In this document: one piece after another, positions 9,891 to 61,696 of the stretch | Position numbering within the stretch: position 1 is the first letter of the stretch | Layout of the letters: every line of letters starts with the position of its first letter | Assembly (NCBI GenBank): GCA_965661285.1 | Contig: CBFIDD010000005.1 | Location: 41,480 to 105,479 of the forward strand | Source: Poseidonia sp. | Lineage (GTDB): Archaea; Thermoplasmatota; Poseidoniia; Poseidoniales; Poseidoniaceae | DNA: 64,000 nt | Reading direction: 5' to 3' | Position numbers and translations under genes: made by a program | Notes under the pieces: generated by a model | Seen by the model: the letters and a program-made list of their open reading frames with translations, nothing else | What the model was told of the DNA's origin: nothing | The model's database searches: none

Positions 9891-12800
9891 ATGGAATCTT
9901 CAACGGCGATAACTTCTGAATATGTTCCATCGGGGGAAGGCCTTCCCTCGTGGCTGTTCGAGGCGTTGTGCTCACCTTCCCAACACGCTGCGATGCTGGT
10001 GATTCATCCTACCGAACTCCATCGCCAGCAGACCCTTGAACGCCTTCATCAGCACGGCGTCTCCGTCTCACCACAGCATCACTTGACGCTCAACAGTCTC
10101 ATCCGTCTCCTTCATGTCGACCTCCGGCTTCCCGTCCTGCTCGATGATGAGGCGAGCACGTTCATGGCCCTCCATGGAAAATGTGTTGAGGCTGCAGAGG
10201 CAACGGCGCTCCCGTTTCTGTACACTCCCGGTGTTGGGTCATGGACACTCACCAAAACGCGTCGCCTCCAACGTTTGCACGGCGAACTTCTTCAACTGCG
10301 CAATCCGTTCAAGTGGGAGGGCGACCCGGGCGCTGAAGTCTTTCATCAACTCTGCCTTGAGGTTGAGGAAGCGGCTGGTGGAACCCTTCCGTCACTGATC
10401 ACCCTTCACGTGCTCGAAGCCCTGCGCAAGGCCACCGAATCACCCTTTCACCTCAGCGGGGTTGCAGGCATCGTGCTGCTGGACATGGCACCGGATTTCA
10501 CGGAAATTGAACACGACCTTCTTTCGGCCATCTCCGTGTTTTGTCCGGTTCACCAATTGCTCAACCCCGGCTCGTTTCGCTTGGGATTCCACGGCGCCTA
10601 TCTCGTCGATGAGGCACCCTGCACGGCGGAAACCCTGCCGTCCTGGCTTCCACCTCATGAACCGTGGTCATCAACTAACGAGGGATGGCAAACCGATGTG
10701 GGTCGACAAAACACAACGGAAATCACACGCCTGACCCTCGACGAGCGTGGCCAAGCAACGGATGCTGCCTTGGCGCTGATTCAGGCTTACAGAGCACGCC
10801 ACGACGGCGATGTTCTGGTTGTCGACGCTGCCGTTCGGGACCGGTCGCTTGCGTGGTCCTCTGCGCTTGCGAGCATTGGCCTCACCTGGCATGCAGGTTC
10901 GACGATGCTGAATCAACAACCCCTGCACCACGCCATTGCGCGGGCCGCTTCGATGGCGCTGGGGATGCGTTCTTGGGCACTTTCGTCCCTTCGCAGTGTC
11001 TTTTTTTCCGCCACCATCCCGCTTCTTGACGATCTTTTTCCCCGCCTCAATCACCCCACCGAGGGAACATGGCGCCCACGTCCCGACCCGAGTGTTCTCG
11101 AGGACATGGCGAGGAATTTCCACGTGCTCGGGGGCCCCGGGGCCATCGCTCGCTGGCTTGGCGTTCTCTCCTCGGCCACACCTTCGTTCGCTGAACGGCG
11201 ACCAGAAGAGAAAGCTCGGGCTTTGGAAGAAACCCAATGGTGGCTGGCATGCTTGCTTCAGATGTGGGCGCCGCTGCTTTCGCCCGAAGACAGACATTTG
11301 CTCCAGCGCCCCGTCGAAGGCTGCACGTCGGGTGCTTCACTTCCGCTCCCCGAACCAACATCTTCTGGCATGGCGTGGCTGTCGTGGTTTGTCTCCATCA
11401 TCGACGTTCATGCTTTGGCCTCACGCCGTGCTCCCCACGACGCTGGTGTGGGCACCCTCCAAGTGTTGATCGAATCCATGAACGATATCAAGCACCAACT
11501 TCAGGCCATGGGATTGCCCTTCGACGATGAGGGCGCGGCCTTCGTTGACCTGCTCGAACATGTCGGTGAGACGGCCAAGGTTACGCACCAAACCTCCCGC
11601 ACCCATCGTCTTCAGGTCGTTTCCCCCGAAGATGCGCTTGGTTGTGCGGCAGACCTGGTATTGTTGGTCGGCTTGGACGTGGATGCGTGGTCAATGAAAT
11701 CCTCCACCGTGCCTTGGTTGGACGCTCCCGCTCGGTTGGAACTTGGTCTCTTTCATACGGACCTTCGGGTGCGTCGTGGTCGCCATCACCTTCGTCATTT
11801 GCTCAACGCTGGAAAGCACCTGGTCGTGTTTGACTCCTCGCCCGAAGAAGGGGGCGGTCCGAGCGCACCTTTGGCTGAGTGGTTGAGCGACCAGCAACGG
11901 AGCAAGGCTTGGGATGCCATGCGCAGACCGCCGAGTTTCCTTCCGCCGTCCATGTACGAAGGCGACGAAGGGTCCCGATCTTTCGGATGGGTTCCGCGTG
12001 AGGAAGGGCACGGGAGCTGGCTCACGCCGGTCGTCCACGCATCCATTGAAACCGACGGTGGAACACATCTTGTACGGCACGGATTCAGTGGACGTGACCG
12101 ACGACAACAACTCGGCCTCGACCTCCATGCCGGCCTCCACGTGTCCGAGGAACTCAACCACCCAAGGGCTCTTCTCGACGCTTACGAGGGTGCCGTCCAG
12201 GCCGACCGTCGGCGGCGTCAGCCGCTTGCAAAACGGATTGAAGCCGGCCAAGCCTTCCCCTGGGAGCGACGGGCCGACCTCTTGAGTGTGGACGCCGTGA
12301 CGCTCCGGCCAACGGCTGCTTCGCTCAAGGTGGCCTCGGTGGCCTCGGGTGTATTTCCTCACCTCGGCTACCGTGGAGAGAAATCGGTCTCCTTGAGCGT
12401 CGACCCTCGCCCACTCCCTCCTTACAGCGCCACCGAAACAGGATTGGACCATCGCTTTGGCCAAATCGAGTCTTCGGTGGAACGGGAAACGTGGTCGCCC
12501 AGTCGCCTCGAAGGCTGGTTGAAATGCCCGCGTCAAGCATGGATGAAACAGGTGTTGGGTGCCGAAGACGATGAGGAGGTCGTTTCCGAAGACATCGATG
12601 TCAGGGTGCGAGGTCAAATCATCCACGATGCCGAGGCTGCCCTGTTGGCGGGTCACGGCATCCAACTCGGTCATGAGACCTCGAATGAACCCGTGCCTTT
12701 GCACGCAGGCCCGATGGGCCAAGGCCGTGCGGGCTGGGATACCATGCTCGCGTTCTTGGAGGAAAACGTGCTTTGGCTGGGACGAAAGAACGCCGTCTCC

Positions 12801-13628
12801 GTCCATCGCACAAAAGACCTCATCGACGCCACGGTTGAGGAGTGGCAAGCCTACAAAGAAGGCGAGATTGAATTGCCTCCCCAAGGACGCCTTGCTCGAT
12901 TGTTGGAGGCCGACCTCTCGCTGCGACACGCCGCGCCGGTCGCCGTTGAATGGTCGCCGTCCACGAACACAGAACGTTCGGTGTTGCTCGACGACGACCC
13001 GCAAAGCGGCGCTCAGGGCTTCCGCCTGTTTGGATACGCTGACCGCGTGGATGTGCTGGTGTTGCCCGATACGGTTCGCAGTGCTTTTGTGGAAAGTGGC
13101 GTCCTCTCCGAGGACACGTACGACACGCCCTATCCGCTTCATGGCGAACGTCGTCCTGCGCAGCGTTTGGTCATCATCCGCGATTTCAAAACCGTTGCTG
13201 GACCGAAACCCGAAAACGTGGGCATGCGGCATATGCGCTGTTTGTTCGAAGACCTCCAACTCGCACTGTACGCTCGAGCTTGGGAACTCCGCCATCCCAA
13301 CGACCGTGTGGTCGGTGTGGGCGCCAGCGAAGTGGGTGAATACACCAAACACCATGTTGAACTCGACGAAGATTTACTTCCTTACACCGAATTCCTTGAG
13401 GTCGGCGAGGTGAGCGATGTCTTTGCGAATCACTTCCCTGCCGAAACCCGAACCGGAAAGGCCACCACGCCGTTTCGTCGGTGGATGGCCGAACGGTTGG
13501 CGGTTGCTCAACGCGCCGTTGACACTGCGGCCCAGGGGCGCGTCAACCCGACGCCAGGGCGCCACTGCAGTTATTGTGCCCTCGCCCACTCTTGCGCCGT
13601 TTCCGACCACGCCGGGGGTGATTTTTGA
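9891..13628 (+). CDS. AddB/AdnA-like subunit: inactive helicase scaffold plus C-terminal PD-(D/E)XK RecB-family nuclease with 4-Cys motif
   Basis: 'WSPSRLEGWLKCPRQ', 'RGQIIH', 'GYADRVD', 'DFKT', 'QLALYA', 'CSYCALAHSC'. No Walker A is visible. Confidence 0.85.
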   Translation: MESSTAITSEYVPSGEGLPSWLFEALCSPSQHAAMLVIHPTELHRQQTLERLHQHGVSVSPQHHLTLNSLIRLLHVDLRLPVLLDDEASTFMALHGKCVEAAEATALPFLYTPGVGSWTLTKTRRLQRLHGELLQLRNPFKWEGDPGAEVFHQLCLEVEEAAGGTLPSLITLHVLEALRKATESPFHLSGVAGIVLLDMAPDFTEIEHDLLSAISVFCPVHQLLNPGSFRLGFHGAYLVDEAPCTAETLPSWLPPHEPWSSTNEGWQTDVGRQNTTEITRLTLDERGQATDAALALIQAYRARHDGDVLVVDAAVRDRSLAWSSALASIGLTWHAGSTMLNQQPLHHAIARAASMALGMRSWALSSLRSVFFSATIPLLDDLFPRLNHPTEGTWRPRPDPSVLEDMARNFHVLGGPGAIARWLGVLSSATPSFAERRPEEKARALEETQWWLACLLQMWAPLLSPEDRHLLQRPVEGCTSGASLPLPEPTSSGMAWLSWFVSIIDVHALASRRAPHDAGVGTLQVLIESMNDIKHQLQAMGLPFDDEGAAFVDLLEHVGETAKVTHQTSRTHRLQVVSPEDALGCAADLVLLVGLDVDAWSMKSSTVPWLDAPARLELGLFHTDLRVRRGRHHLRHLLNAGKHLVVFDSSPEEGGGPSAPLAEWLSDQQRSKAWDAMRRPPSFLPPSMYEGDEGSRSFGWVPREEGHGSWLTPVVHASIETDGGTHLVRHGFSGRDRRQQLGLDLHAGLHVSEELNHPRALLDAYEGAVQADRRRRQPLAKRIEAGQAFPWERRADLLSVDAVTLRPTAASLKVASVASGVFPHLGYRGEKSVSLSVDPRPLPPYSATETGLDHRFGQIESSVERETWSPSRLEGWLKCPRQAWMKQVLGAEDDEEVVSEDIDVRVRGQIIHDAEAALLAGHGIQLGHETSNEPVPLHAGPMGQGRAGWDTMLAFLEENVLWLGRKNAVSVHRTKDLIDATVEEWQAYKEGEIELPPQGRLARLLEADLSLRHAAPVAVEWSPSTNTERSVLLDDDPQSGAQGFRLFGYADRVDVLVLPDTVRSAFVESGVLSEDTYDTPYPLHGERRPAQRLVIIRDFKTVAGPKPENVGMRHMRCLFEDLQLALYARAWELRHPNDRVVGVGASEVGEYTKHHVELDEDLLPYTEFLEVGEVSDVFANHFPAETRTGKATTPFRRWMAERLAVAQRAVDTAAQGRVNPTPGRHCSYCALAHSCAVSDHAGGDF

Positions 13629-16600
13629 TGATCGAATTCAACAACAGTCAACGCTTGGGTTTGGACCTTGACCGACATATTGCTCTTGATGCTGGAGCAG
13701 GCACGGGGAAGACCACGGTGATGGCGGAACGCTACGTACAGCATCTGATCGCCGGCCAACAACGTGCGACCCATGTCACACCACCGGGGCCTCGCACACC
13801 CCTTACCGGCCAAGGTGCACTTCGAGCCCCGAAGCGCGAACGAACGTCACTCGAAGCGTGGCCCGGACTCCTTCCCTCCGAAACGGTTGCCATCACGTTT
13901 ACGCGCAAATCTGCGGCTGAACTCAAAGCGCGCATTCGCCACAGGCTCGCACTGACCCGTGCCCTTCCTCCCGATGAAGAGGATGTTGACGGTGTGTTTG
14001 ACCCTCGCTTGCGCCATGAAGGCGATGTCGAGATGTTGCTTTCAGGTCTCGATGAAGCGCCCATTTCCACCATTGACGCCTTCCTCAGTCAACTCGTCCA
14101 GCCCTACATCGACCTCGTGGCCCTCTATCCCTCCAACCAACAAGTTTCCGAGGAACGCAAGCCCTTGATGGTGCAGGATACGTTGCACGCGGTTTGGCGT
14201 ATTCGTTCGGTTGAAGACGCCCGAGAGGCCGGTGTTCTCTATCACCACCAGGCGTTCCTTGATGCACGTGACCGTTTGGTTGGCCGATTGGGCGGCCAAG
14301 ACCAAGCCGAGGTCGTTTTGGGAGGGCTCCTCGACCGTTCGCTCTTTGTTGAGCAATCTCACCGGTCCATGATTCAACGCGCTGAAACCATGGGTGCGGA
14401 TTGGAACGGTCGGGGGCCAGCACCGATTCAGGTTCTGCTCAACACCATCGCTGAACCCGTTGAGGATGTCCTCGAGGACTTTCTCGTTCCTTTTCACCAC
14501 GACCTCAATGCATGGGTGCAGGAATTTTTGCTGTACCGCACACAGTGCGTCGAGCCCGCAGAGGCCGACACACACCTCACGCGCTTCAACCACCTGACAC
14601 GTTTGGTCACGGGCGACCTTCCAAGCCAACCCGGTGAACAACTGGCTTGGTTTTGGAAAGCCTTGCTCGGTATCGCTACTGCGTCGGGCTTGGTCAAGCC
14701 GCAATGCACGTTCTTTCCCCGTGATTTGCTGCCCAACGGCGATGGTTGGCCATCTGGTCTGCTTTCGAAATCGAGGGCCAAAGGCATTGGCAAAGACGAC
14801 AAGGTCGCCCTGTATGCAAGGGCCCTCACCCACATCCAAAACCTGCGTCGCCGCTTGAATTCCGCCGATGGAACCCTGATGCGTCTCCTTGCACGCTCAG
14901 CCTTTTTGCTCAATCCGGGCGATGGCTTTGACGGTATGCCGCTTGAGAGTTCACTGCGTTTGGACCCCCTCGAAGACCCACTTCCCGCCGCACCAACCGA
15001 GCGAGGCATGTACGTCACGGCGACCTTACAGACGCAGGTTTTGAGCGACCTGCTCATCGTCCACAAAGCTTGCAACCAAATCCTGGCTCGTCGCAAATCC
15101 CTTGACAACATGCACGACTTTGACGACATGCAGCGCTTTGCTGCAGATTTGCTGCTGGCCCGCTGCCCTGACATCTGCCGGCATCGTTACCCTCCTGAGG
15201 TGATTGATGCGCTTGACGGACTTGGTGAGGAGCCGTGGAGTGACGCCCATATTTCACGAGCGCTTACGCTGCTCAACGACCGTCCTGCACTGCAGGAAGA
15301 CCTTCACCGGCGCTTTTCCATACTCGGGGAGTTACGACGCCAGTATCGAGCATTCATCATCGACGAATATCAGGACACCAACCCGTCCCACTATCGGCTC
15401 CTCGCTCGTTTGTGGGGGCGCCGCCGTCACCATACCGACGATCCGTCTCGCCCACTCGGCGCCTGGGACCCAACGATTTGCATCGTCGGCGATATGAAAC
15501 AGAGCATCTACCGTTTCCGGCAAGCCGAGGTTTCTGTCATGCGAAGGGCTGTCGAGGCGATTCGTCAGTTCAACGCGGAGGAAGCCGATGAGCCGCGCCT
15601 TCAACACCTTCGGGAATCGGGCTGCGGACGCGACCCTCGTCCGGTTGGCGGCGGTGGTGAAACCGGTTCGTTTTCCAATGAACATACGGGCGAGGTTTCG
15701 GCGCCTCACACCTTCGTTCGTTTTGCTGAGGAAGATGTCGAAGGGCAACCGGCCATTGCAGGGGAGCGTCTTCTTCGCCGGGTGGAGGGCCACATTGACC
15801 TGACGTCCAACCACCGAACACGCCATGATTTGATGGAGACGATGAACGACATGTTCGACGAGGTGTTTGACCCGAGGTACCACGCGCTTCCCGGGGATTG
15901 GCACGCTGAAGCCCAACGCCTTCGGCCAGCACGGAACACCTCTTCTTCCGGGGCGCTGGAATGGTTGCTTCCCATCCCGGGGTCCATCGAGGCGGTGCCA
16001 AGCGATCTCGATCTGGCGGTGAACACGTTTGCAGACCCCTCGGCTTCCATCGTTCATCTTGAACATGAACTTCTCGCAGACCGACTTCATGCGCTGCTGC
16101 ACCAGAGCCCCACGCGGGTTTGGGACAGTCAAGCACCGGGATGGGTTGAGGTGGTCGAGCCAGACGGTCCGCCCGTCCGCCCGCAGGACATTATGATTCT
16201 CATTAACTCGCGAAAACACCTTCCCGACCTCGTTGAACGCCTGCGCGCTCGAAACATCCCGGTGATGGCCGACCGACAAGGCCTCCTGTTGATGCAACCC
16301 GTCGTTCAGCCGTTGATGGCCATTCTTGCTCTCATGGCACGCCCCGCTTCACGGAGGGCGGCGGTTGAATTGGCCCGTTCTCCCGTCGTTGGGATGACCG
16401 AGCAACAGGTCCACGAATGCTTGACGACCCTGCCCGAGGGCGGTGAAGTGCTCCCTCACTTGCTTGAGCGTGCGCCGAGTGAAGGTGTTGCCACGCTGCT
16501 CAGGAGGCTTCAACACCGCATTCAATGGGGGGCGGTCTACGATGCGTTTGACCTTCTTTTGGATGAATCGGACCTTCTGGTTGCGTATCCAGACGATGCC

Positions 16601-18568
16601 CAGCGCCAATTTGCCGAGGCGTGGGTGGCCATGCTCCACGCCATGGGGAAGGATTCCGGACACGACCCGGCTGCGATGTATCGTCGACTGATGGACGTCC
16701 GTGCGCTCGGCAACCAAGGACCGCAAGCCATCACGCAGCCCACTGCATCCGCCGTCCAAATCATGACCATCCACGGCTCTAAGGGTCTTCAGGCTCCTGT
16801 GGTCGTTGTCACCGGCCTGTTTTCTGCAGGAAAGGCGGATGCGAGCATGTCCGTCCAAGACAACATCCTCGTGACTCCACAGGTGCTTGCTGGGCGCATC
16901 CAGCCTTGGCGAGCACGAGACCGCCCGCACGATGGCCTGTGGGCGTTCACGGCCGAGATGAACAAAGCCCAAGACAAGGCGGAACTGCGTCGCAAGTTTT
17001 ACGTGGCCCTGACCCGAGTCAAAGACCGCCTCATCGTCACGGGTTCGCCCGGAAATGCATCAACCTTCGACGCGTCCTCCGGCCTTCTTTCCGTTCGTTT
17101 CTCGCCTGACCCACGAACGATGGGACGCATGTTGGTCGAAGGCCTTCGCCGAGCGACCTGGCGCACCGGCACCCCTGCACCTTGGCTTTCCCAAAGCGAG
17201 GTTGAAAAGGCCACGCTCCCGCTCTTCAGTCCCCTGAAAACAGAGACGCTTCTCAATCCGGCCCAGTTGTTGAACACCATGCCGTTGGGCGAAAACGGGT
17301 TGGAAGGACTTCGTTTGTATCACCATCCCGATTGTTTTGAGACCACCACCACACGGTCGGCACAGGCACGTGCGAAGGCCCTTGCCCGTCATCTTCAGCA
17401 CCTTTCTCGCTCGCCCACGCCAACGACGCCACAGCTCGTCCTGGAGGAGAACATCAAGGGGGCTGCTCACCACCTTGATGCAACCTTTTCGTGTTCACGA
17501 AAATATTGGCTCGAACACGTCAAAGGATGGCCGACTGAACCGTTCCGACTGCCCAACACGGCTGCTGACCTGCCTTCGCCCAGTCGCTGGCCGGAACCCA
17601 CCACGTTTGGTTTGATGATGCACCGTGTTCTCGAAATCGGTTTGCGAAACCCGTGCCAGTTCGGTGCGACCACGCCTCACCTCGACACCTCGTGGCAACA
17701 CAAGAGCGACGCCGACCTCGCGAGCACCGAAACCATCGGACGCGTGATGAATGAATTTGGATACGGGCTCGAGCAAGAAGAAGGCTCGCAGCACGCGGTC
17801 TGGCGCGACCGACTGATGGACTTGAGTTCGCTCATCGACGAGGGCTTGCTCGGACGGTGGGTTCAGGGTGAATCGTTGAACGGATGGACGGTTGAGGCCG
17901 TCCGAACGGAACTGCCGTTTTTCCACCGTGAGGTGCTGACAACACCGCCTTCAACCGAAGGAACGCCGCAACCCTTCGCACAGCGAGACGGGGCGGCCGT
18001 GCACCACGTGAACATGGATTTCAACGGGCGAGCCGACTTGGTCCTGGCGCTGATGGATGATGACGGCCAGGGCGCGCTTCAGGTGGTTGACTTGAAGACA
18101 CGTGGTTGCCTTGGCGCCTTCAACCGAGAGGATGTATCGAAGGGTCACCCGCTCCAGGCGGTGCCGCCCAGCGAAACCAACCCCGTTCCCCAAAGCGACG
18201 AAGAAGCGGCCATCCTCCACGAACATCGCTTGCAGTTGACCTTGTATTCCATGGCGCTTGAAGCCGCCGAGGAAAAGAAACCGCCCTCAGAACAGCGACG
18301 CATTTTGCCTCCCGCTCTGCTTCTCGGGGCCAACGGCCGCATGGTCCAGTTATCGGAGGGCGCCTTTGCGCAGGCCAAAAAGGATCTCAGGGCGCATCTG
18401 GCCTGGCGAGCAACCGTTCACCTCAACCCGCATGCAGAGGAGCCGCGACGCCTTCCAAGCGGCTCGGAGACGTGCCGTCAATGCCCCTTTTACCGAGGCG
18501 ACTTGCGTCGTTGTGGGCCGGAGGGCGAGCCGCTGGGCTTCATCCATTTGATGGACGCTGAGCCGTGA
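13625..18568 (+). CDS. AddA/AdnB-like UvrD (SF1) helicase-nuclease
   Basis: 'AGAGTGKT', 'AITFTRKSAAELKARI', 'DEYQDTN', 'VGDMKQSIYRFRQA', 'TIHGSKGLQ', 'YVALTRVK'. Nuclease motifs 'GRADLV..DLKT..QLTLY' and 'CRQCPF..C'. Overlaps the upstream stop. Confidence 0.92.
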   Translation: MMIEFNNSQRLGLDLDRHIALDAGAGTGKTTVMAERYVQHLIAGQQRATHVTPPGPRTPLTGQGALRAPKRERTSLEAWPGLLPSETVAITFTRKSAAELKARIRHRLALTRALPPDEEDVDGVFDPRLRHEGDVEMLLSGLDEAPISTIDAFLSQLVQPYIDLVALYPSNQQVSEERKPLMVQDTLHAVWRIRSVEDAREAGVLYHHQAFLDARDRLVGRLGGQDQAEVVLGGLLDRSLFVEQSHRSMIQRAETMGADWNGRGPAPIQVLLNTIAEPVEDVLEDFLVPFHHDLNAWVQEFLLYRTQCVEPAEADTHLTRFNHLTRLVTGDLPSQPGEQLAWFWKALLGIATASGLVKPQCTFFPRDLLPNGDGWPSGLLSKSRAKGIGKDDKVALYARALTHIQNLRRRLNSADGTLMRLLARSAFLLNPGDGFDGMPLESSLRLDPLEDPLPAAPTERGMYVTATLQTQVLSDLLIVHKACNQILARRKSLDNMHDFDDMQRFAADLLLARCPDICRHRYPPEVIDALDGLGEEPWSDAHISRALTLLNDRPALQEDLHRRFSILGELRRQYRAFIIDEYQDTNPSHYRLLARLWGRRRHHTDDPSRPLGAWDPTICIVGDMKQSIYRFRQAEVSVMRRAVEAIRQFNAEEADEPRLQHLRESGCGRDPRPVGGGGETGSFSNEHTGEVSAPHTFVRFAEEDVEGQPAIAGERLLRRVEGHIDLTSNHRTRHDLMETMNDMFDEVFDPRYHALPGDWHAEAQRLRPARNTSSSGALEWLLPIPGSIEAVPSDLDLAVNTFADPSASIVHLEHELLADRLHALLHQSPTRVWDSQAPGWVEVVEPDGPPVRPQDIMILINSRKHLPDLVERLRARNIPVMADRQGLLLMQPVVQPLMAILALMARPASRRAAVELARSPVVGMTEQQVHECLTTLPEGGEVLPHLLERAPSEGVATLLRRLQHRIQWGAVYDAFDLLLDESDLLVAYPDDAQRQFAEAWVAMLHAMGKDSGHDPAAMYRRLMDVRALGNQGPQAITQPTASAVQIMTIHGSKGLQAPVVVVTGLFSAGKADASMSVQDNILVTPQVLAGRIQPWRARDRPHDGLWAFTAEMNKAQDKAELRRKFYVALTRVKDRLIVTGSPGNASTFDASSGLLSVRFSPDPRTMGRMLVEGLRRATWRTGTPAPWLSQSEVEKATLPLFSPLKTETLLNPAQLLNTMPLGENGLEGLRLYHHPDCFETTTTRSAQARAKALARHLQHLSRSPTPTTPQLVLEENIKGAAHHLDATFSCSRKYWLEHVKGWPTEPFRLPNTAADLPSPSRWPEPTTFGLMMHRVLEIGLRNPCQFGATTPHLDTSWQHKSDADLASTETIGRVMNEFGYGLEQEEGSQHAVWRDRLMDLSSLIDEGLLGRWVQGESLNGWTVEAVRTELPFFHREVLTTPPSTEGTPQPFAQRDGAAVHHVNMDFNGRADLVLALMDDDGQGALQVVDLKTRGCLGAFNREDVSKGHPLQAVPPSETNPVPQSDEEAAILHEHRLQLTLYSMALEAAEEKKPPSEQRRILPPALLLGANGRMVQLSEGAFAQAKKDLRAHLAWRATVHLNPHAEEPRRLPSGSETCRQCPFYRGDLRRCGPEGEPLGFIHLMDAEP

Positions 18569-23019: not shown

Positions 23020-23055
23020 AACAGGAGACGCTGACGGCGACCTGCGGTGAAGCCC

Positions 23056-24222
23056 ATGACCGATACACCCGTTCTTCCGTTGCTCGGTCAAGGGAAGAAG
23101 GGTTTGCGCATTCACGATTTGGTCAAAGCCCCCGCCAACACGCCGTGGGCAAAAGCCAAGCAACAATCGTGGGATGCCAGCGAGCCAGCCACGGTCTACA
23201 CCACGCCGGAAGTCTTGGCCGACGGCACGCCCTGCAGTGCGGTAACCGTCATCTTGCGAACAAAAGGCTGCCACTGGTGGTGGTCGTCCGGCTGCACCTT
23301 TTGCGGTTACTTCAACGATACACGGGACGATGTCACCAACGACGACTTGCATGCCCAATGGGCGGCAGCGAAAGAAAAGTTTGACAATTTCGCTGAACAA
23401 GCCATGGTCAAAGTCTACACCTCCGGAAGCTTGCTCGAAGACCGGGAGATTCCCGTTGCTTTTCAGGAGACGGTGCTGCGAGACTGTGCTGAGATGGGGA
23501 AGGAACTCATCGTCGAGAGCCGCTGTGAGCAGTTGACAGAGGAGAAACTCTCCTGGGCCACCTCCATCAACGATTCTTTCACCGTCGCCATCGGACTTGA
23601 GGCCTACGACGACGAAGTGCTTCGTTTCCATGTCAACAAAGGGTTCAGTACGGCTTCGTGGGATCGAGCGGTGGCCAATTTGGAGAAGTTCAACTTGCGC
23701 ATCAAAACCTACCTCATGTTCAAACCGCCCTTCATGAACGAAGCCGACGCACTTGACCACTGTGTCAAATGGATTGGAGCGGTGGCCGAGCAATCCGATG
23801 AAATCTCCGTCAATCCGATGAACATCCAACGTGGGACCGTCATCGACCGTCTTCACCGCCACAACGAATACCGGCCGCCATGGCTATGGTCGCTGGTCGA
23901 TATGATCCGACGTGCTCACCCATTGATTCACCCCGAAGGCGGGGTCAATGGCGACGACGACCAAGTCGCACGCCTCATCGTTCACCCCACGGCAGGTGGA
24001 AAAATACGCGGTTCGCACAATTGCGGTTCGTGCGACGCCGAAGTCGTTGCGGCCATAGAGCGCTATGCTGTTTCGGGAAGCCTGCTTGAATTTGACGGTC
24101 TGAAGTGTGATTGCGAGGCTGTTTGGCGAAACGAAGTGAAGTTGGAACGCCAACTCCCTGTTCCTCTCGGCCTCTCCAAGCCCCGTCGGGGCTCGGCGGT
24201 TGACCGTTTGCGTTCGCCTTGA
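23056..24222 (+). CDS. Archaeosine biosynthesis radical SAM protein (RaSEA/TIGR01210-like)
   Basis: 'ILRTKGCHWWWSSGCTFCG' (Cx7Cx2C), 'YTSGS', 'YRPPWLWS', 'RGSHNCGSCD'. Confidence 0.88.
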   Translation: MTDTPVLPLLGQGKKGLRIHDLVKAPANTPWAKAKQQSWDASEPATVYTTPEVLADGTPCSAVTVILRTKGCHWWWSSGCTFCGYFNDTRDDVTNDDLHAQWAAAKEKFDNFAEQAMVKVYTSGSLLEDREIPVAFQETVLRDCAEMGKELIVESRCEQLTEEKLSWATSINDSFTVAIGLEAYDDEVLRFHVNKGFSTASWDRAVANLEKFNLRIKTYLMFKPPFMNEADALDHCVKWIGAVAEQSDEISVNPMNIQRGTVIDRLHRHNEYRPPWLWSLVDMIRRAHPLIHPEGGVNGDDDQVARLIVHPTAGGKIRGSHNCGSCDAEVVAAIERYAVSGSLLEFDGLKCDCEAVWRNEVKLERQLPVPLGLSKPRRGSAVDRLRSP

Positions 24223-24315: not shown

Positions 24316-24330
24316 TTTGAGGTGAACCGT

Positions 24331-24603
24331 ATGACAAACTCTCGAGCCCTCCCCGACACCACTGTCGGCACCGGCGAACCAGCCGCTAGCCGAATTGTTT
24401 TGACGTTGTTTTTTGTGGGCCTCCTCGGCCTCTATTCGCTCTTCTCAAATGTCTTCGGTTGGGACAACCTTCCCCTCCTTGGCGAACTCGTCCCTCTGGT
24501 GCAGAATCTCGGTGGGAGCGGCATCTGGTACTATTTGATTGGCTTCTTGATTGGCATCGGTGCCATCGTGGCGACGTTGGTGGGCGAGGTACTCGCTGAA
24601 TGA
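24331..24603 (+). CDS. Small two-TM membrane protein
   Basis: Strong SD GAGGTGA, two hydrophobic helices, operonic with the next gene. Confidence 0.75.
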   Translation: MTNSRALPDTTVGTGEPAASRIVLTLFFVGLLGLYSLFSNVFGWDNLPLLGELVPLVQNLGGSGIWYYLIGFLIGIGAIVATLVGEVLAE

Positions 24604-24617
24604 TGGAGGTGTGATGC

Positions 24618-26603
24618 ATGGAAACCATCTTCATTTCTGGCGGCTTTTTGGTCGCGCTCCTCTTCTTCCTCTCACAATCCCTCTCCAAGGGCGTCGGCTC
24701 TGTTGGCGGTGCGTTGAAACAAATCGGTCTGTTCATCCTCCAAAAGAACCCACCTGGCTTGGTCGACATCTTTGACGACCGAGACGGCAGCGGCTCCCGC
24801 ACATGGATGAACTTCAGCATGCTCTGGCTCGTCTTTGCCTCGCTGCTTGGTTTCCTTGGCGGGTGGCACAAGTACGACCCAACCGCTCTTGATTCCCTCG
24901 CCAGCGTGGGCTGGTCGTACGACGACGGTTCCGCATTGACCGACGCTACCCTCAATTTCCTCACCATCGCCCTTCTCTACGGCATGATCGGTAGCGGAAT
25001 GGTCGCCACCGCTCGAAACAGCAACGGCCGCATGGCAAGCGAAGCCAACGCCTCCATGGTGGCCCTTCTCTTGACTGCGGTTCTCCTCGCCAGCTACCTC
25101 CTCCCGTTCATCTTCGGTTTCCTTGACATCGATACAGAAACCGGAGCGGTTGCAACCATGCTCTACAGCCTCGAGACGTTGGCCCTCGGCCTCCTCCTCG
25201 TTCCGGTGTTCATCAACGTCCTGATCACCGCTGCCAACCGAGGAGAGCAGGAGCTCCAAACCAGCGTTTGGTTCCTCATCATGGGTCTCGCCGCCTTCAT
25301 CCTCTCCATGGTGTACATGTTCTTTGGCGAACTGGCTGACGCCACCCAAACGGTCTGGCTTGCCGAACGCGTCGCTCACGGTTGGGTTCCACTCGCGTTG
25401 ATGTTCTCCGTCGGCTACCACGTCATCCCGATGACGGCGAAGCAACCCATCTGGTCGGGCTCGATGCGCACCGCAAGCATGCTCTTGCTCTTCATCACCA
25501 TCCCGCCCTTCTTCATGACCGAAGCCTCGGCCAGCAACTTCGTGACCAACCTCGGGGCCATCCTTCTCACCTTGGGCGTGCTCCCCATCTTTGCCGCCTC
25601 CATCAACCTCCTGATGACGGCCAGTTCGGGGCTCAGTTCCATCGTCAAGCAACCCGGTGCCATTGCGGCCACCATGGCGTTCCTGGCCCTCCCCTTCTTC
25701 GCCGTAGGCGGTTATTTCACCGCCATGGACACCTTTGTCGGCACTGGCGAACTTGGCACGATGGGTGAGATTGTGAACATTGGTATGTTGTTCACGGTCG
25801 GTGGGCTCCTCGTGCTTGCTGGTGCGTTCACCAACTACCCCAACGCCATCGGAAAACCACTCGCTACTCCACCAACGGCGACCTTGGCCACGTGGATGGT
25901 CCTCGTTGGTGGTGTCGCCTCCACCCTGACCTATCTCATCGGAGAATTCACCACAAACGCCGTCGCTTCCTCAGAAGTTGAGGACGTCGTGGCCAACAGC
26001 GGTGGATTCTATTTGACGGGTGCAGCCTTGTTTTACTTAGCATCCATCGGGACCATCCTTTCCACGATGGTCGTGATTCGAACCGGCATCTCTTCCACCG
26101 GCCGCTCTAAGGTTGTTGAAGAGACGTCGGACATGGCCAGCTACACCTTGACCTCCGGTTCCTCCACCACGATTCGAGATCTTATCGGTCGTGGCGTGGG
26201 CGTCGATACCACGCTGGTTGTGAGCGAGACCGAACCTAGCGAAGGTGGCTCCACCATCATCGCTGTGGATTCTGCACTTCACAACGACGAGATCAAAGAA
26301 TTCCCGACCACGGCCACGTCGGTCATGGTTGAGTTTGTCCAGTACCTCACCAACACCAAGCAGTCCGTGTTTGAATTGTTCCGAGGCATGGATTTGGACG
26401 ACTCGGGTAAAATCGACAGTCAGGAATTCCTCGCAGCGCTTGAAGGATCAGACGTAGAGGCCCTTTCCTCCATGGACGCAAAGGAACTTGTTGAGCGTAT
26501 GGACCTTGACGGTGATGGCGAGTTGAACCTTCCAGAACTTGACATCGCCATCGCACAGATCAAGCGCGACCACAACATCGTGGCCTCTGAAGAAGAGGAA
26601 TGA
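24618..26603 (+). CDS. Polytopic membrane protein resembling haem-copper oxidase subunit I (CcoN-like, ligand-less) with C-terminal EF-hand pair
   Basis: About 13 TMs with segments resembling CcoN. EF-hands [12 protein letters not shown] and [21 protein letters not shown] upstream. Confidence 0.7.
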   Translation: [661 protein letters not shown]

Positions 26604-26624: not shown

Positions 26625-27905
26625 GTGCGCATCGGTTTGGTCGGCAAACCCAACGTGGGCAAATCCACGTTTTTCAGCGCAGCAACCCTGGCACAGGTTG
26701 ACATTGCCAACTACCCTTTTTGCACCATCGACCCGAACGTCGGCGTAGCGTTTGTTGAGGCACGTTTGGACTGCCCCTGTCGCGAACTTCGGGAGAAATT
26801 GGAGGCCGAGGGCCGACTCGGTGCCGCCGAAGAAGACGACCCTCGCCAGGGCAGTTTGTGCGAGCCACGAACCGGAACGTGCATCGGTCACCGCCGTTCG
26901 GTCCCTGTTGCCCTTGTCGACGTGGCCGGTCTCGTCCCCGGTGCCAGTGAGGGACGCGGTCGGGGGAATGCCTTCCTTGCCGACCTTGCCAATTGTGATG
27001 TGCTGATCCAGGTGGTTGATGCCGCAGGATCAACCGATATCGAGGGCCAATTCACCGGTTCGACATCCTCGACCGAAGAGGCCGTTCATGCCGTTCAAGC
27101 CGAGATAGAATTTCTCGAACGAGAACTTGATGCTTGGATTGGTGGCCTTTTGCACGAGGGTTGGAATCGCGGGGTTCGCCGTGTGCAAGCCGAGGGCGAG
27201 AAGGGCTTGATGACCTTCGTACAAGAACGCTTGAGCGGATTGGGGGCCACGGCTCCTCTGGTCGCTCAGGGGATGGCGGCGTTCAATGCGATCCACGCCT
27301 CGGAGGCCCAGCCATGGGATTGGGACCGAACGTCGCTTGACCTTCTGGGGCGCTGCATGCGAGAACAACTGTTCCCCGTCGTCTACGCCGCGAACAAAAT
27401 GGACATCGCCCCAAAAGGGGTCATCGAGGCCTTTCCCAATCGCTCGATGTACGCCTGCATGGCCGACATGGAACTGGCGCTTCGGCGTGCATCATCGGCC
27501 GGTCTCATCGAGTATCGGAGCGGGCAAGCTCGTTTTGAAACGGCCGCGGATGCATCGTTAAACGACGCTCAGAAAAAAGCCCTTGATCACATGCAAGAAC
27601 GACTGCAATCCGCTGGAGGGACGGGACTTGCCAACCTCATGGACGAGGTGTTGTTTGACCGGCTGGATCACATGGTGGTCTACCCGGTCCAGGACGAGAC
27701 GCATTGGGTGGACGGGGATGGACGTGTGCTTCCCGATGCTTTGGTCGTCCCTTCGGGCCTTCACGCCAAGGCCCTTGCAGGACGCGTTCACACCGATTTA
27801 GAAACCGGTTTCATCAAAGGCGTCGACGGTCGAACGCGGCGTGTTGTTGGCGCTGACCATGAGTTGGCTGACGGCGACGTGTTGAAAATTCACGCCAAGT
27901 CTTGA
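26625..27905 (+). CDS. YchF/Ygr210-family Obg-like GTPase with TGS domain
   Basis: 'GKPNVGKST', 'NYPFCTIDPN', 'DVAGLVPGA..GRGRGNAFL', 'NKMD', C-terminal TGS domain. Confidence 0.92.
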   Translation: MRIGLVGKPNVGKSTFFSAATLAQVDIANYPFCTIDPNVGVAFVEARLDCPCRELREKLEAEGRLGAAEEDDPRQGSLCEPRTGTCIGHRRSVPVALVDVAGLVPGASEGRGRGNAFLADLANCDVLIQVVDAAGSTDIEGQFTGSTSSTEEAVHAVQAEIEFLERELDAWIGGLLHEGWNRGVRRVQAEGEKGLMTFVQERLSGLGATAPLVAQGMAAFNAIHASEAQPWDWDRTSLDLLGRCMREQLFPVVYAANKMDIAPKGVIEAFPNRSMYACMADMELALRRASSAGLIEYRSGQARFETAADASLNDAQKKALDHMQERLQSAGGTGLANLMDEVLFDRLDHMVVYPVQDETHWVDGDGRVLPDALVVPSGLHAKALAGRVHTDLETGFIKGVDGRTRRVVGADHELADGDVLKIHAKS

Positions 27906-28334: not shown

Positions 28335-30575
28335 TCAAGCATCCGATTGAACGGCAAGGAATTGCTCAATGATGCGCTGGCCTTGTCGTGAACCGATGGA
28401 CTCCGGGTGGAACTGCACGCCATGAATGGGGAGGTCGGGGTGGCGCAATCCCATGATGAGGCCAGAGGCGGTTTCTGTGGCGTTCACGAGCAACTTGTGC
28501 TCCCCGTCTTCAATGGCGATGAGGGAATTGTAGCGCGTCATTTTCAACCCCTGCTCGAGATCTTCAAAAATTCCTGTGCCGTCGTGGTCGATATCAACAG
28601 GCACGCCATGAACGGGGCCAAAGGGTGAGGAGACGACCTGCCGCCCATCGGCCAAGGCCAAGGCCTGATGTCCAAGACATACGCCCAGAACGGGTACTGA
28701 GAGCTGACCGTCGAGGGCGAGGTGCGCCAGGGCCATGGTCAGCCGTGCGTCCTGGGGGCGGCCAGGTCCAGGTCCGAGGATCACATGGGTTGGTTGGAGG
28801 TGCTCCAACACATCGTGCAGGGCGACCGGATCCAGCAACCGTTGACTCGCAGGGGAGCGTCCTTCGAGGACTACGACATCGCGTCCGGTTTGCGCGATGG
28901 CATCGGCGATGTTGAGCGAAAAGGAATCGAGGTTGTCAATGAAAAGAACACCCGCTTCGCTTCCTGTTGCAAGCGCCTCGTTCAATGAATGGATTTGACC
29001 GCAATCCAAGGTGGTCGGGCGTCGTTTTGGGGGCTGCAGTGGATGGATGCCGAGTGTGCCTGTCGGCAACGTGCTTTGCTGGGCTTTCATCCAGCCCGCT
29101 GCGACCCGTAGTGCAGCACCTTTCCACGCTGCTTCCTCCACCTCGTTTTTGGGTTGCGAGGCGATGGTGATGCCGCCACCAGCACCGACCGAGGCTTGCC
29201 AGCGTCCACCGTGCGTATGGGCCTCGAGCGTTCGAATCAAGATGTTCCAAGCGGATTGGCCACCGTAAACATCGACGTAGCCGATGGACCCTGTCCAAAA
29301 CGAACGCGGCATCTCTTCCAAACGGTCGATAACAGCACAGACGACGGTACGAGGGCAACCCGTGATGGAGCCGCCAGGGAAGACAGCCTGCAGTGCGCGA
29401 CCCCCAGCATCGGCAGGACGGCGCTGGGCCGTGATGTGACTGACCAGATGCTGAACATTGGCGTAGGCTTCCACGTCAAAACGTTCGACGTTGATGGTAC
29501 CGGGCTGGGCGATTTGGGTCAGATCGTTGCGCATCAAATCAACGAGCATACGGTGTTCAGCACGCTCCTTTTGGTCGCCGATCATCGATTCACGGTGGCG
29601 TGCCGCTTCATCAGGGGTTGAACCCTGCGGGCAGGTGCCCTTGATGGGAGAGGTTTGGAGGAGCTGGCCGTCGCACATCAAGAGTGATTCAGGAGAGGAA
29701 CTTGCGAGCGCGAATCCAAGGTCGTGCGCCTCGGTGTAAGCGGAAAAGGGTGCGGGGTTGCTTCGCATCAGGCGCTGAAACACAGCATAGGGGTGGTCGA
29801 TTTCTCCCAGCCAGTGTTTGCCGATGTTCACCTGATACACCTGTCCGTTCACAATACCTTGACGAACGGCTTCCACGTTCATTTCGTGGGTTTCGTCGGT
29901 GTGTGTCACGGCTTCACGATGTGGCTGGGGCGGTGAAACGACAACGTTCTGCCCGTTCCATTCCACATTGGGCTTGGCCGATGTGCACCATGTCTCGTCG
30001 CTTCCAAACACGTCAACGCTCCCGGATTGGTGGTCGAGGACCACCCCTCCCGTCACCAACCAAAGGACGGCCAGAAGTGCGCCCTCGTCAGGGGGATGTT
30101 GCAGGCGAAGGGGCTGGGTCCACTGCACGAGATCGTAGGCCAGAGCGCCGGACCAAAACGGTCGTTTGGGCAGGGAGGTGGCGTGGGTTTGGGAGAACGG
30201 TTCTTGGGGTGTTTCCGCCTTGAGTTTGGTGAACACGTCTTCGACGTCGCTCGCTCGCAAGGTCACGCTGTGATACCAAGAGCCGTGTTTCCACTCCTCG
30301 ACTTCGGCATGAAGCAGCGGTCGGTCATGTGTCAAACGAAGTTCACCCTCAAGCGGGTTATGCGCCTCGGCTGCAGGCAGGTACGTGCGTGATGGTTGCC
30401 GGAGAACGACACGTTTGGTCGGGGGAGACGCAATCAGCGAATGTTTGGCCAGGTGGGAGACCGGCCCACCGGAGACCAGGAGAACTTTGTCGGGGGAACC
30501 GAATCGGAACGCCCCTTCTCCCAGAAGTTGGTTGGCTTCGAGTTGGTCCACGATGGCCATCACGTGTTCAGACAT
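28335..30575 (-). CDS. pabAB: Fused aminodeoxychorismate synthase (PabB domain + PabA glutamine amidotransferase)
   Basis: 'SSSPE', 'PIKGT' (PabB-type Lys; TrpE has PIAGT), 'KERAEHRMLVDLMRNDL', 'FPGGSITG'. GATase motifs 'IDNLDSF', 'GPGPG', 'GVCLGHQ', 'QFHPES'. Confidence 0.88.
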   Translation of the reverse strand: MSEHVMAIVDQLEANQLLGEGAFRFGSPDKVLLVSGGPVSHLAKHSLIASPPTKRVVLRQPSRTYLPAAEAHNPLEGELRLTHDRPLLHAEVEEWKHGSWYHSVTLRASDVEDVFTKLKAETPQEPFSQTHATSLPKRPFWSGALAYDLVQWTQPLRLQHPPDEGALLAVLWLVTGGVVLDHQSGSVDVFGSDETWCTSAKPNVEWNGQNVVVSPPQPHREAVTHTDETHEMNVEAVRQGIVNGQVYQVNIGKHWLGEIDHPYAVFQRLMRSNPAPFSAYTEAHDLGFALASSSPESLLMCDGQLLQTSPIKGTCPQGSTPDEAARHRESMIGDQKERAEHRMLVDLMRNDLTQIAQPGTINVERFDVEAYANVQHLVSHITAQRRPADAGGRALQAVFPGGSITGCPRTVVCAVIDRLEEMPRSFWTGSIGYVDVYGGQSAWNILIRTLEAHTHGGRWQASVGAGGGITIASQPKNEVEEAAWKGAALRVAAGWMKAQQSTLPTGTLGIHPLQPPKRRPTTLDCGQIHSLNEALATGSEAGVLFIDNLDSFSLNIADAIAQTGRDVVVLEGRSPASQRLLDPVALHDVLEHLQPTHVILGPGPGRPQDARLTMALAHLALDGQLSVPVLGVCLGHQALALADGRQVVSSPFGPVHGVPVDIDHDGTGIFEDLEQGLKMTRYNSLIAIEDGEHKLLVNATETASGLIMGLRHPDLPIHGVQFHPESIGSRQGQRIIEQFLAVQSDA

Positions 30576-31317
30576 CGTGGGGCCTCACCATAGACCACGT
30601 GCTCTCCTCGGTAAAATGTTGGGCCAAGAGGTCATGACACGCGGAGGAGAGGGCCGTTGACGAACCGAGGCTTTCGCCGTCTAAATCGTTGATTCGGCAG
30701 ACGCCCATTCCCGTACCGACCACGATCAGCTCAGCACACCGAGCCACCGTTCGTTCGTTCAGTTTCCCCTTGATCACAGGAAAGCCAACTCCCGGGAGTT
30801 GCGCTTCAAGCACGGCGGCTGTGATGCCGTCCACGCCCCCATCGGCGGAGGGTGCAACCCATACCGTACCGTCTTCATCCAGGAGCATTGGTGTGCCTCG
30901 GTCTGCATCAACAATGGCGTAATCATGAACCAACATGGCTGCGTCGCAACCGGCGTCAAGAGCGGCCTGCGTGGCGCGTTGATAGCCCGTCCAATCACCG
31001 TGTTTGGTACCGTTGGTTCGCTCGTTCCATCGCGGCGCAGGTACGGTGATGGCCTCGATCGCTTCGTTGCGAAACGATAGAGGTCGCAGTTCAACCTTCC
31101 AGTCGCTTTCGGATGCTGAGAAGGAAACACGCGCCAGCCGCCAATCCGCCGTATCAGCGCTGGTCGATACGCTTGGCGCCTCGGTGGGCAAGGTGATTCG
31201 CAATCGTTTGGCGTGGTCTTCCAGTCGGTTTCGGTGGGCAGGCCAGTCGGCAACTTCCCCACGCTCGTTGACAAGCACCGTCGTGAACACCTCTGAGCGT
31301 GGTCCAGCGGGCGCCAT
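30568..31317 (-). CDS. pabC: Class IV aminotransferase-fold protein, probable 4-amino-4-deoxychorismate lyase
   Basis: 'VFTT', 'HRNRL', Lys in 'GTKH', 'DGIT'. Overlaps pabAB. Confidence 0.72.
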   Translation of the reverse strand: MAPAGPRSEVFTTVLVNERGEVADWPAHRNRLEDHAKRLRITLPTEAPSVSTSADTADWRLARVSFSASESDWKVELRPLSFRNEAIEAITVPAPRWNERTNGTKHGDWTGYQRATQAALDAGCDAAMLVHDYAIVDADRGTPMLLDEDGTVWVAPSADGGVDGITAAVLEAQLPGVGFPVIKGKLNERTVARCAELIVVGTGMGVCRINDLDGESLGSSTALSSACHDLLAQHFTEESTWSMVRPHDV

Positions 31318-61618: not shown

Positions 61619-61696
61619 AGCGAGGTGGGGTAGTCTGGATATCCCGTCGGGCTCATAACCCGGAGATCGATGGTTCAAATCCATCCCTCGCTACCA
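61619..61696 (+). tRNA. tRNA-Met(CAT), initiator
   Basis: Acceptor stem AGCGAGG/CCTCGCT with A1:U72, anticodon stem GGG-CTCATAA-CCC, T-loop TTCAAAT, encoded CCA. Confidence 0.96.

Follow-up and report, generated by a model that had tools for sequence, protein, structure and literature searches.

A pair of adjacent genes in Poseidonia sp., an archaeon of the order Poseidoniales or Marine Group II (MGII), encodes what is almost certainly a descendant of haem-copper oxidase subunit I without metal ligands, together with a dedicated partner protein of 90 amino acids. The genes lie in a stretch of 64,000 nucleotides (contig CBFIDD010000005.1, positions 41,480 to 105,479 of the forward strand), which we refer to as the window. 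The same high confidence extends to the twelve-helix architecture of the large protein, to its placement nearest to CcoN of the cbb3 oxidases, and to the membership of the pair in the single-copy core of the Poseidoniales, in a genome that carries a separate A-type oxidase. It is the metal centres that define haem-copper oxidases, and a ligand-less branch maintained by selection would show that the scaffold can serve a non-redox purpose. The Poseidoniales are among the dominant archaea of the sunlit ocean and, to our knowledge, have no cultured member; a universal protein of this kind in the order marks a real gap in knowledge. As to function, we tentatively suggest that the cytoplasmic face of the large protein and a linker following its last helix are the surface under selection, so that the complex may act as a membrane platform facing the cytoplasm. 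For identity and platform mechanism taken together as one statement, we judge the chances to be about even.

The small gene is read from the ATG at 24331, which is the start common to its relatives, an alternative GTG being present at 24322. Conserved motifs in the alignment of its homologues are LPDV, G..EP and SGIWYYLIG. The small protein matched no Pfam or NCBIfam family, and a language-model feature search yielded nothing but unnamed archaeal clusters, which are probably those of the small protein itself. The large gene begins 15 bases downstream, and its product comprises 13 membrane helices (TM0 to TM12, for transmembrane) and a C-terminal EF-hand pair. In the N-terminal addition, which includes TM0, residues G25, F39, K43 and G57 are invariant and D50 is nearly so. 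The linker that follows TM12 is present in every member of the family, including the minimal forms found in the MGIIb lineage; G526 and T531 are invariant, G514, I519 and L522 near-invariant, and AlphaFold models the segment, at low confidence, as strand-helix-strand.

Near-identical database entries (86-91% identity) are named by NCBI only 'EF-hand domain-containing protein', and a search of 1.84 billion representatives with the large protein gave 466 matches at E ≤ 0.001. The reading of the window made beforehand from the sequence alone (hereafter the sequence-only reading) knew of no description of this architecture, and our literature search likewise found no ligand-less oxidase-fold family in the Poseidoniales. 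The same reading had proposed a small partner. This proposal is borne out by gene order, with a homologue of the small protein located directly upstream and on the same strand in 34/34 loci, which represent both families of the order. We presume that the small protein forms a subunit of a complex with the large one; a complex prediction for the small protein and the membrane domain of the large protein scored 0.01 against a mark of 0.32, which provides no answer and is used neither way.

An oxidase fold without its metal ligands

We compared the large protein with known families by means of two profiles. Profile A1 is an alignment of the window protein and 20 full-length relatives, and profile A3 covers the membrane domain only, in 27 sequences from genome loci. 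Searched against the PDB, A1 matched cbb3 CcoN (3mk7_A) over chain residues 61-406 with an E value of 6.7e-17. The sequence-only reading had aligned four segments of the protein, beginning at residues 200, 266, 312 and 402, with CcoN by eye; the HMMER profile alignment to 3mk7_A yields the same register, with an E value far beyond chance. In this register the WF segment stands opposite the WF segment of CcoN, YPNAIGK stands opposite VPKVFGR, and YHVIP..QPIWS is aligned as well. A3 retrieved five distinct PDB sequences at E ≤ 1, all of them cbb3 CcoN (best E value 1.8e-14), and no NO reductase (NOR), A-type or B-type chain at that threshold. The only NCBIfam oxidase models matched were again those of cbb3 enzymes, namely PRK14485 in 4/27 sequences and ccoN in 2/27.

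Structural comparison agrees with the profiles. The AlphaFold model of the large protein (48-row alignment) has a pLDDT of 80.9 and a pTM of 0.73, and that of a minimal, 526-residue MGIIb orthologue has a pLDDT of 82.4 and a pTM of 0.87. Among the 33 Foldseek matches of the window model at E ≤ 0.001, ranks 1-7 are all cbb3 CcoN (E values from 4.5e-9 to 4e-8, target TM 0.72-0.77), followed by NorB and then by ba3 oxidase. CcoN again takes the top seven places with the MGIIb model (E values from 1.5e-13 to 2.6e-11; 91 matches at E ≤ 0.001). Both models have the twelve-helix fold of subunit I, their best matches being subunit I chains. A language-model feature search, which we use as a lead only, placed COX1 clusters in 27/30 named matches of the large protein. 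The proposal of a CcoN-like subunit I fold is therefore upheld by Foldseek, by the profile search of the PDB and by NCBIfam, which agree. On the evidence of sequence profiles and structural models, the family is closer to the C-family (CcoN) than to the A-family, the B-family or NOR.

The likeness to CcoN (FixN; PDB 3mk7, 8smr, 6xkw, 9g6b and 9g83) includes the twelve-helix fold (Foldseek ranks 1-7, target TM 0.72-0.78), profile homology over TM2-TM11 at the E values of 6.7e-17 and 1.8e-14 given above, and a set of cytoplasmic-side motifs, T..R....WF, Y..P.....P.WS, P......N...T and P...G(R/K). However, the Poseidoniales family lacks the histidine ligand set and the cross-link tyrosine of CcoN, and is encoded in a genome in which no CcoO was found. 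It also differs by adding an N-terminal helix, the linker after TM12, EF-hand, SAP or helix-hairpin-helix tails and a two-helix partner, and by being archaeal and restricted to the Poseidoniales among the genomes searched. NorB, of the cytochrome c-dependent NO reductase (PDB 3o0r and 4xyd), occupies Foldseek ranks 8-9 with the window model (E value about 1e-5, target TM 0.72-0.74). NorB is a twelve-helix subunit I without a proton pump, with six histidine ligands and additional glutamate ligands for FeB. It gave no sequence-profile match at E ≤ 1, and it keeps its ligands, whereas the Poseidoniales family has none.

The loss of the ligands can be followed position by position in the alignment to CcoN. 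Residues H207, Y251, H257, H258, H345 and H347 of CcoN, which we take to be metal ligands and, for Y251, the cross-link tyrosine, face R251, F292, F298, F299, V386 and I388 of the window protein. As the sequence-only reading had noted, the HH motif of CuB and the HxH motif of haem are both absent: FF (298-299) stands in place of HH, and V386 and I388 in place of the two histidines of HxH. H60 of CcoN lies one residue outside the 3mk7_A alignment, and the window protein has no histidine near the equivalent position. Across the family, histidine is found in 0/27 sequences at each of the positions equivalent to H257, H258 and H345, in 4/27 at those of H207 and H347, and in 5/27 near that of H60; in 0/27 sequences are both members of the haem b axial pair (the equivalents of H347 and of the H60 region) histidines. 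The column of the helix VII tyrosine that CcoN cross-links to a CuB histidine (F292 in the window protein) is occupied by F in 22 sequences, L in 2, and Y, M and V in 1 each of the 27. Former ligand positions 292, 298, 299 and 386 hold mostly Phe, Leu, Met or Val. A check independent of register gives the same picture, with the richest histidine column of the membrane domain reaching 17/27 (H268) and, the start methionine aside, no His, Cys or Met column reaching 80% among the 27 sequences. Neither the window protein nor any other family member has the six histidine ligands of a haem-copper subunit I, of which two bind the low-spin haem axially, one is proximal to the high-spin haem and three bind CuB or FeB. 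By descent the family belongs to the haem-copper superfamily, but it lacks the functional features that define that superfamily.

Since none of the six histidine ligands nor the cross-link tyrosine is kept, the canonical set of haem b and haem b3-CuB cannot be held, and the large protein cannot reduce O2 or NO in the known way. The electron-entry subunit is missing too, as no FixO/CcoO (PF02433) match was found at E ≤ 0.01 in the whole genome, which is 93% complete; CcoP was not searched separately. Nor do ccoO or ccoP lie near the pair, as the sequence-only reading had stated; the flanking genes are RaSEA and a YchF-related GTPase. One may still imagine a redox enzyme that holds haem or another metal on non-histidine or shifted ligands. 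The fully retained fold, the occasional histidine that a few members have at one ligand-equivalent position, the invariant Y473 and the presence of H268 in 17/27 sequences are compatible with this idea. Yet a shifted ligand set would be hard to reconcile with the lack of any widely conserved His, Cys or Met column, with the three ligand positions that are never histidine, with a membrane domain that in the window protein contains only three histidines (84, 254 and 268) and no cysteine, and with a genome in which no CcoO was found. We regard such an enzyme as hardly credible.

Several results run counter to the identity proposed here. The window protein alone has no COX1 match in Pfam at E ≤ 1; alone against the PDB, it matched only centrins and calmodulins. 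A PF00115 search of its genome at E ≤ 0.01 recovered the canonical COX1 only. In this family, COX1 homology is carried, at the level of sequence, by the family profile and by relatives rather than by the window sequence alone: the Pfam COX1 cut-off of 34.8 is passed by relatives P0148 (42.0 bits, spanning profile positions 4-404 of 436) and P0132 (43.2 bits), both 26-29% identical to the window protein, and COX1 matches are seen in 3/21 sequences of A1 at E ≤ 1 and in 5/34 orthologues at E ≤ 0.01. A comparison by hhalign of A3 with the order's own A-type COX1 gave a probability of 3.5% and an E value of 0.012 over TM8-12 only, from a shallow COX1 template alignment (Neff about 2), and the global mode gave nothing useful. 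The hhalign register places HxH four residues off the register based on CcoN, with no conserved histidine in either. In addition, only the residue identities at the CcoN ligand positions, and not their roles, were read from the alignment. Relatives that pass the COX1 cut-off also have a practical consequence, in that annotation pipelines can mistake them for additional or cbb3-like oxidases and so arrive at a wrong picture of the oxygen physiology of these archaea.

Topology, conservation and possible functions

Lysine and arginine account for 178/1846 residues in the inner loops of the family versus 8/1269 in the outer loops. This skew places the linker and the EF-hands in the cytoplasm, a topology shared with CcoN, whose C-terminus is also cytoplasmic. 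Conservation is distributed along the same axis. Averaged over the helices, conservation amounts to 2.55 bits in their inner half and 2.19 bits in their outer half; it is lowest, at 2.09 bits, in the outer third, which is where oxidases hold their metal centres. Positions identical in at least 90% of sequences number 14 inner versus 6 outer in helices, and 11 inner versus 4 outer in loops. The motifs common to the family and CcoN are all located at cytoplasmic helix ends or in loops, and among polar or charged residues Y473 alone reaches 90% conservation within the central third of any helix.

The conservation of the cytoplasmic face, combined with the invariant linker, points to a platform role and away from the former active site. 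We may thus envision a redox-dead scaffold anchored in the membrane, which would present a platform to the cytoplasm, and lineage-specific modules hanging on the linker, which would modulate the output of this platform. In the MGIIa lineage, including the window, the EF-hand pair would make the platform responsive to calcium, while many relatives, though not the window protein, would use a SAP or helix-hairpin-helix module of nucleic-acid-binding type. The adjacent YchF-related GTPase and nucleic acid would be candidate clients.

There are points to be held against this mechanism. The platform idea derives from conservation patterns and domain logic only. The side of the membrane was assigned from AlphaFold helix limits and the positive-inside rule rather than from a solved structure, and the columns of the alignment are not independent, which makes the nominal significance of the conservation difference indicative only. 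The gene order around the pair may reflect mere order-wide synteny (see below). Finally, N330 (27/27) and T334 (26/27) match N289 and T293 of CcoN, and the position of the first CuB histidine is polar or charged (K, R, Q, H or E) in 20/27 sequences; both features would suit a residual path for protons or ions.

These last observations belong to a different explanation, in which the emptied scaffold serves as a transporter or as a conduit for H+ or cations, keeps part of the cytoplasmic proton input of cbb3 oxidases and is gated by the EF-hand pair in MGIIa. Oxidase subunit I scaffolds contain proton pathways, so the class of scaffold is a suitable one. Besides N330 and T334, Y267 matches Y223 of CcoN in 14/27 sequences; N289, T293 and Y223 presumably lie in the K-channel analogue, a point on which a literature search gave nothing usable. 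The polar or charged residues at the first CuB histidine position and the canonical EF-hand pair also fit a gated conduit. On the other hand, calcium gating cannot be the core function of a family in which 0/10 MGIIb orthologues have EF-hands. The scarcity of conserved polar residues in mid-helix (Y473 alone) and the low conservation of the outer third do not favor a conduit either, and the mostly Phe, Leu, Met or Val content of positions 292, 298, 299 and 386 suggests an interior packed with hydrophobic side chains rather than a polar pore. Nor are other positions of the K-channel analogue retained: the residues opposite S240 are mixed, those opposite H243 are S/T/G/N/A, and Y317 has L opposite it in 25/27 sequences. 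The sequence-only reading had put forward a calcium-gated channel, transporter or sensor; a calcium-gated channel or transporter as the core function is not supported in that form, and a conduit of any kind is in our opinion unlikely.

Going beyond the platform itself, we may also hypothesize that the family is the first pseudoenzyme branch of the haem-copper superfamily. A cbb3 subunit, presumably acquired by the Poseidoniales ancestor, would have lost all its cofactors and gained a new two-helix subunit to become an essential non-redox machine, whose cytoplasmic face and linker would recruit clients such as the YchF-related GTPase or, through SAP or helix-hairpin-helix tails, nucleic acid; in MGIIa, either the recruitment of clients or a proton path through N330 and T334 would then be switched by calcium. 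We consider this fuller scenario doubtful as it stands. If true, it would couple EF-hand calcium signalling to a membrane complex, a rare arrangement among archaea.

Distribution, gene order and selection

The family is found throughout the Poseidoniales. An A1 search detected it in 250/251 genomes of the order at E ≤ 1e-5 and in 244/251 at E ≤ 1e-60; matches beyond the 244 may be fragments or tail-only, and the one unmatched genome is 81% complete. In the two main families of the order, the membrane-domain profile A3 was matched in 56/57 and 37/37 genomes, that is 93/94 besides the window's own, nearly always in single copy. Outside the order, A3 was matched in 0/306 other Thermoplasmatota genomes, including 0/10 in the same class.

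Gene order is equally constant. RaSEA lies upstream of the pair in 34/34 loci. The YchF-related GTPase lies directly downstream and on the same strand in 32/34, the other two loci ending before it. In the window, the GTPase gene begins 21 bases past the stop codon of the large gene and may be co-transcribed with the pair. In four genomes of a sister family in the same class, the gene before the GTPase is another one. We looked there, and in one genome of another family of the phylum, for a hidden divergent homologue of the large protein beside the GTPase; none was found, the upstream gene encoding an unrelated protein of surface type. In the sister family (L060-L062 and L064), this protein is long, with one membrane helix, a zinc-ribbon-like CxxC...CxxC pattern and a tail rich in proline and acidic residues, which ends in FGPSIGG.

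To measure selection, we compared eight congeners with the window using the ratio of nonsynonymous to synonymous substitution rates (dN/dS). Ratios are taken from the two pairs with the least saturation (dS about 0.94 and 1.02); in five others dS exceeds 1.3, which makes them unreliable, one is saturated, and the small gene was recovered in 6/8 congeners. In the two pairs, the large gene has dN/dS values of 0.059 and 0.057 (0.053 and 0.048 for its membrane part) and the small gene values of 0.032 and 0.010. Substitution patterns thus indicate that the gene pair is under strong purifying selection.

The resident A-type oxidase deserves consideration here. A canonical COX1 scoring 487.6 bits to PF00115 is encoded on another contig of the window genome, and canonical COX1 is present in 59/61 sampled genomes of the order. 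This protein belongs to the same superfamily and the same genome as the family described here, but it has invariant histidines in FFTLHG, WFFGHPEVY, WGHHM and VAHFHY (genome's COX1 and 15 orthologues), and it is only weakly alignable to the family, as the hhalign comparison above indicates. As many pseudoenzymes act on their active relatives, the large protein could be a pseudo-subunit, a dead copy that binds, assembles or regulates the A-type oxidase or another respiratory complex. Such a role would account for the co-occurrence of the two proteins and for a fold kept under strong purifying selection. It would not account for the location of the pair and of the cox genes on separate contigs (C5 and C1), for the dedicated partner and conserved neighbours of the large protein, or for its nearest relatives being in the C-family when the resident oxidase belongs to a different COX1 lineage, one that is not picked up by A3. 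Two genomes (G019 and G021, both 92% complete) carry the family without a COX1 match, although this is a weak argument from incomplete genomes. We consider a pseudo-subunit quite unlikely.

The COX1 genes of the order (L001, G000:C1:542009-546370, and L045-L059) have features of their own. They form frames of 770-800 amino acids in which some 210 residues precede the oxidase helices, and this suggests a fusion with another subunit or domain. Genome G045 has a second, divergent COX1 match of 129.5 bits in a frame of 559 amino acids.

A related case in the literature is a halobacterial family, fam02696, described in PMC9258230 as unannotated, distantly homologous to oxidase subunit I and adjoining cbb3 or NorB genes. 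As portrayed in that paper, it is similarly an archaeal hypothetical family tied to haem-copper subunit I by profile comparison only; it differs in being found in Halobacteria and near cbb3 or NorB genes (PMC9258230). The paper also mentions Poseidoniales-specific modules that hold calcium-binding domains (PMC9258230). Its main text describes no Poseidoniales oxidase-like family, though its supplementary tables may list the present family (PMC9258230).

Variable tails and other features of the window

The C-terminal tail is the variable part of the large protein. In the window protein, the EF-hand pair is recognized by PF13499 at 30.2 bits, marginally above the cut-off of 30, and by PF00036 at 27.1 bits versus 25.4; the best PDB sequence matches of the pair are centrin-2 and calmodulin (E value 2e-5). 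For a loop to count as canonical, positions 1, 3 and 5 had to be acidic or polar, position 6 Gly, position 8 hydrophobic and position 12 Glu. The two canonical 12-residue loops already recognized in the sequence-only reading are supported by the Pfam match and by a loop pattern kept in MGIIa-type relatives: positions 1, 3, 5 and 12 are kept in both loops in 24/24 MGIIa-type sequences, and Gly at position 6 is found in 21/24 for loop 1 and 24/24 for loop 2. With calmodulin and centrin, the large protein shares a helix-loop-helix pair with two canonical 12-residue loops; here, however, there is only one such pair, it is joined to a polytopic membrane protein at the cytoplasmic end, and calcium binding is predicted.

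Among 34 orthologues, EF-hands are seen in 24/34, SAP (PF02037) in 22/34 and a helix-hairpin-helix in 1/34. The absence of EF-hands from all ten MGIIb orthologues implies that calcium control is a lineage-specific add-on. Four of these ten have SAP and six have neither module. EF-hand and SAP tails provide a handle on archaeal calcium signalling, which is poorly known.

The SAP domains raise the possibility that the membrane domain chiefly tethers a SAP or helix-hairpin-helix module, binding DNA or RNA, to the membrane, with calcium as a modulator in MGIIa. The frequency of SAP, its occurrence in four MGIIb proteins independently of EF-hands, the one helix-hairpin-helix orthologue and the cytoplasmic location of the tail all speak for a tether. 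But SAP is absent from the window protein and from its whole genus, and minimal MGIIb forms (526-558 amino acids) have neither EF-hands nor SAP. Furthermore, a mere anchor would need neither a twelve-helix domain evolving at a dN/dS near 0.05 nor a dedicated partner. We find a tether very unlikely as the chief function.

Two tails are worth describing separately. The minimal MGIIb forms of 526-533 amino acids (L026:2001-3578, L028:1998-3596, L034:2004-3581 and L035:1998-3596) end, shortly past the conserved linker, in a CxxC and an acidic run (...CDRCEEEE or similar), in which one might see a dimerisation motif or one half of a metal site. An MGIIa orthologue of 862 amino acids (L022:1501-4086) has a C-terminal helix-hairpin-helix with a GIG hairpin, and is the sole match of the 34 to HHH_5, Cdd1 or DNA polymerase lambda fingers; judging from these domain matches, it is a second nucleic-acid-binding tail type on the same scaffold.

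The features of the window are listed in Table 1.

Table 1. Position and annotation of the gene pair, its domains and other features of the window
Feature	Position	Strand	Basis or description
Small partner gene	24331..24603	+	Open reading frame; 90 amino acids, two hydrophobic membrane helices
Large gene	24618..26603	+	Open reading frame; 661 amino acids, membrane domain, conserved linker and EF-hand pair
N-terminal addition, residues 1-57	24618..24788	+	Extra helix TM0 (2-24) and conserved amphipathic segment, cytoplasmic side
Twelve-helix oxidase-fold core, residues 58-491	24789..26090	+	Profile match to 3mk7_A, Foldseek, ligand columns
Cytoplasmic linker after TM12, residues 506-536	26133..26225	+	Motif G-T-T-I-R-x-L-L-x-x-G-x-G-x-D-T
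EF-hand pair, residues 583-641	26364..26540	+	Pfam PF13499 and PF00036; calmodulin/centrin matches
EF loop 1	26391-26426	+	12 residues, begins at residue 592
EF loop 2	26502-26537	+	12 residues, begins at residue 629
RaSEA (archaeosine radical SAM)	23047..24222	+	TIGR01210, 279 bits vs 212; context only
YchF-related GTPase with TGS domain	26625..27905	+	NF007171, 408 bits vs 387; Pfam
PD-(D/E)XK nuclease gene	9891-13628	+	Pfam; overlaps next large gene
UvrD helicase, UvrD_C, PD-(D/E)XK gene	13625-18568	+	Pfam
Very acidic coiled-coil-type protein, 255 amino acids	20313-21080	+	Weak matches only: crescentin rod (Pfam), SMC (NCBIfam)
Fused chorismate-binding / glutamine amidotransferase (PabAB- or TrpEG-like)	28335-30575	-	Overlaps aminotransferase gene
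Class IV aminotransferase (PabC-like)	30568-31317	-	Overlaps 28335-30575
Reading frame without Pfam family, 2776 amino acids	31327-39657	-	No family at E ≤ 0.001
Reading frame without Pfam family, 1152 amino acids	51900-55358	+	No family at E ≤ 0.001
tRNA-Met (CAT)	61619-61696	+	Only tRNA gene in the window

A promoter scan of the window returned no bacterial-type promoters and 9 terminator-like elements versus 6.1 in shuffled sequence, an analysis that is uninformative for an archaeon. Away from the gene pair, the overlapping nuclease and helicase genes look, from their domains, like an AddAB-type helicase-nuclease, and the two overlapping genes at 28335-31317 suggest the para-aminobenzoate branch.

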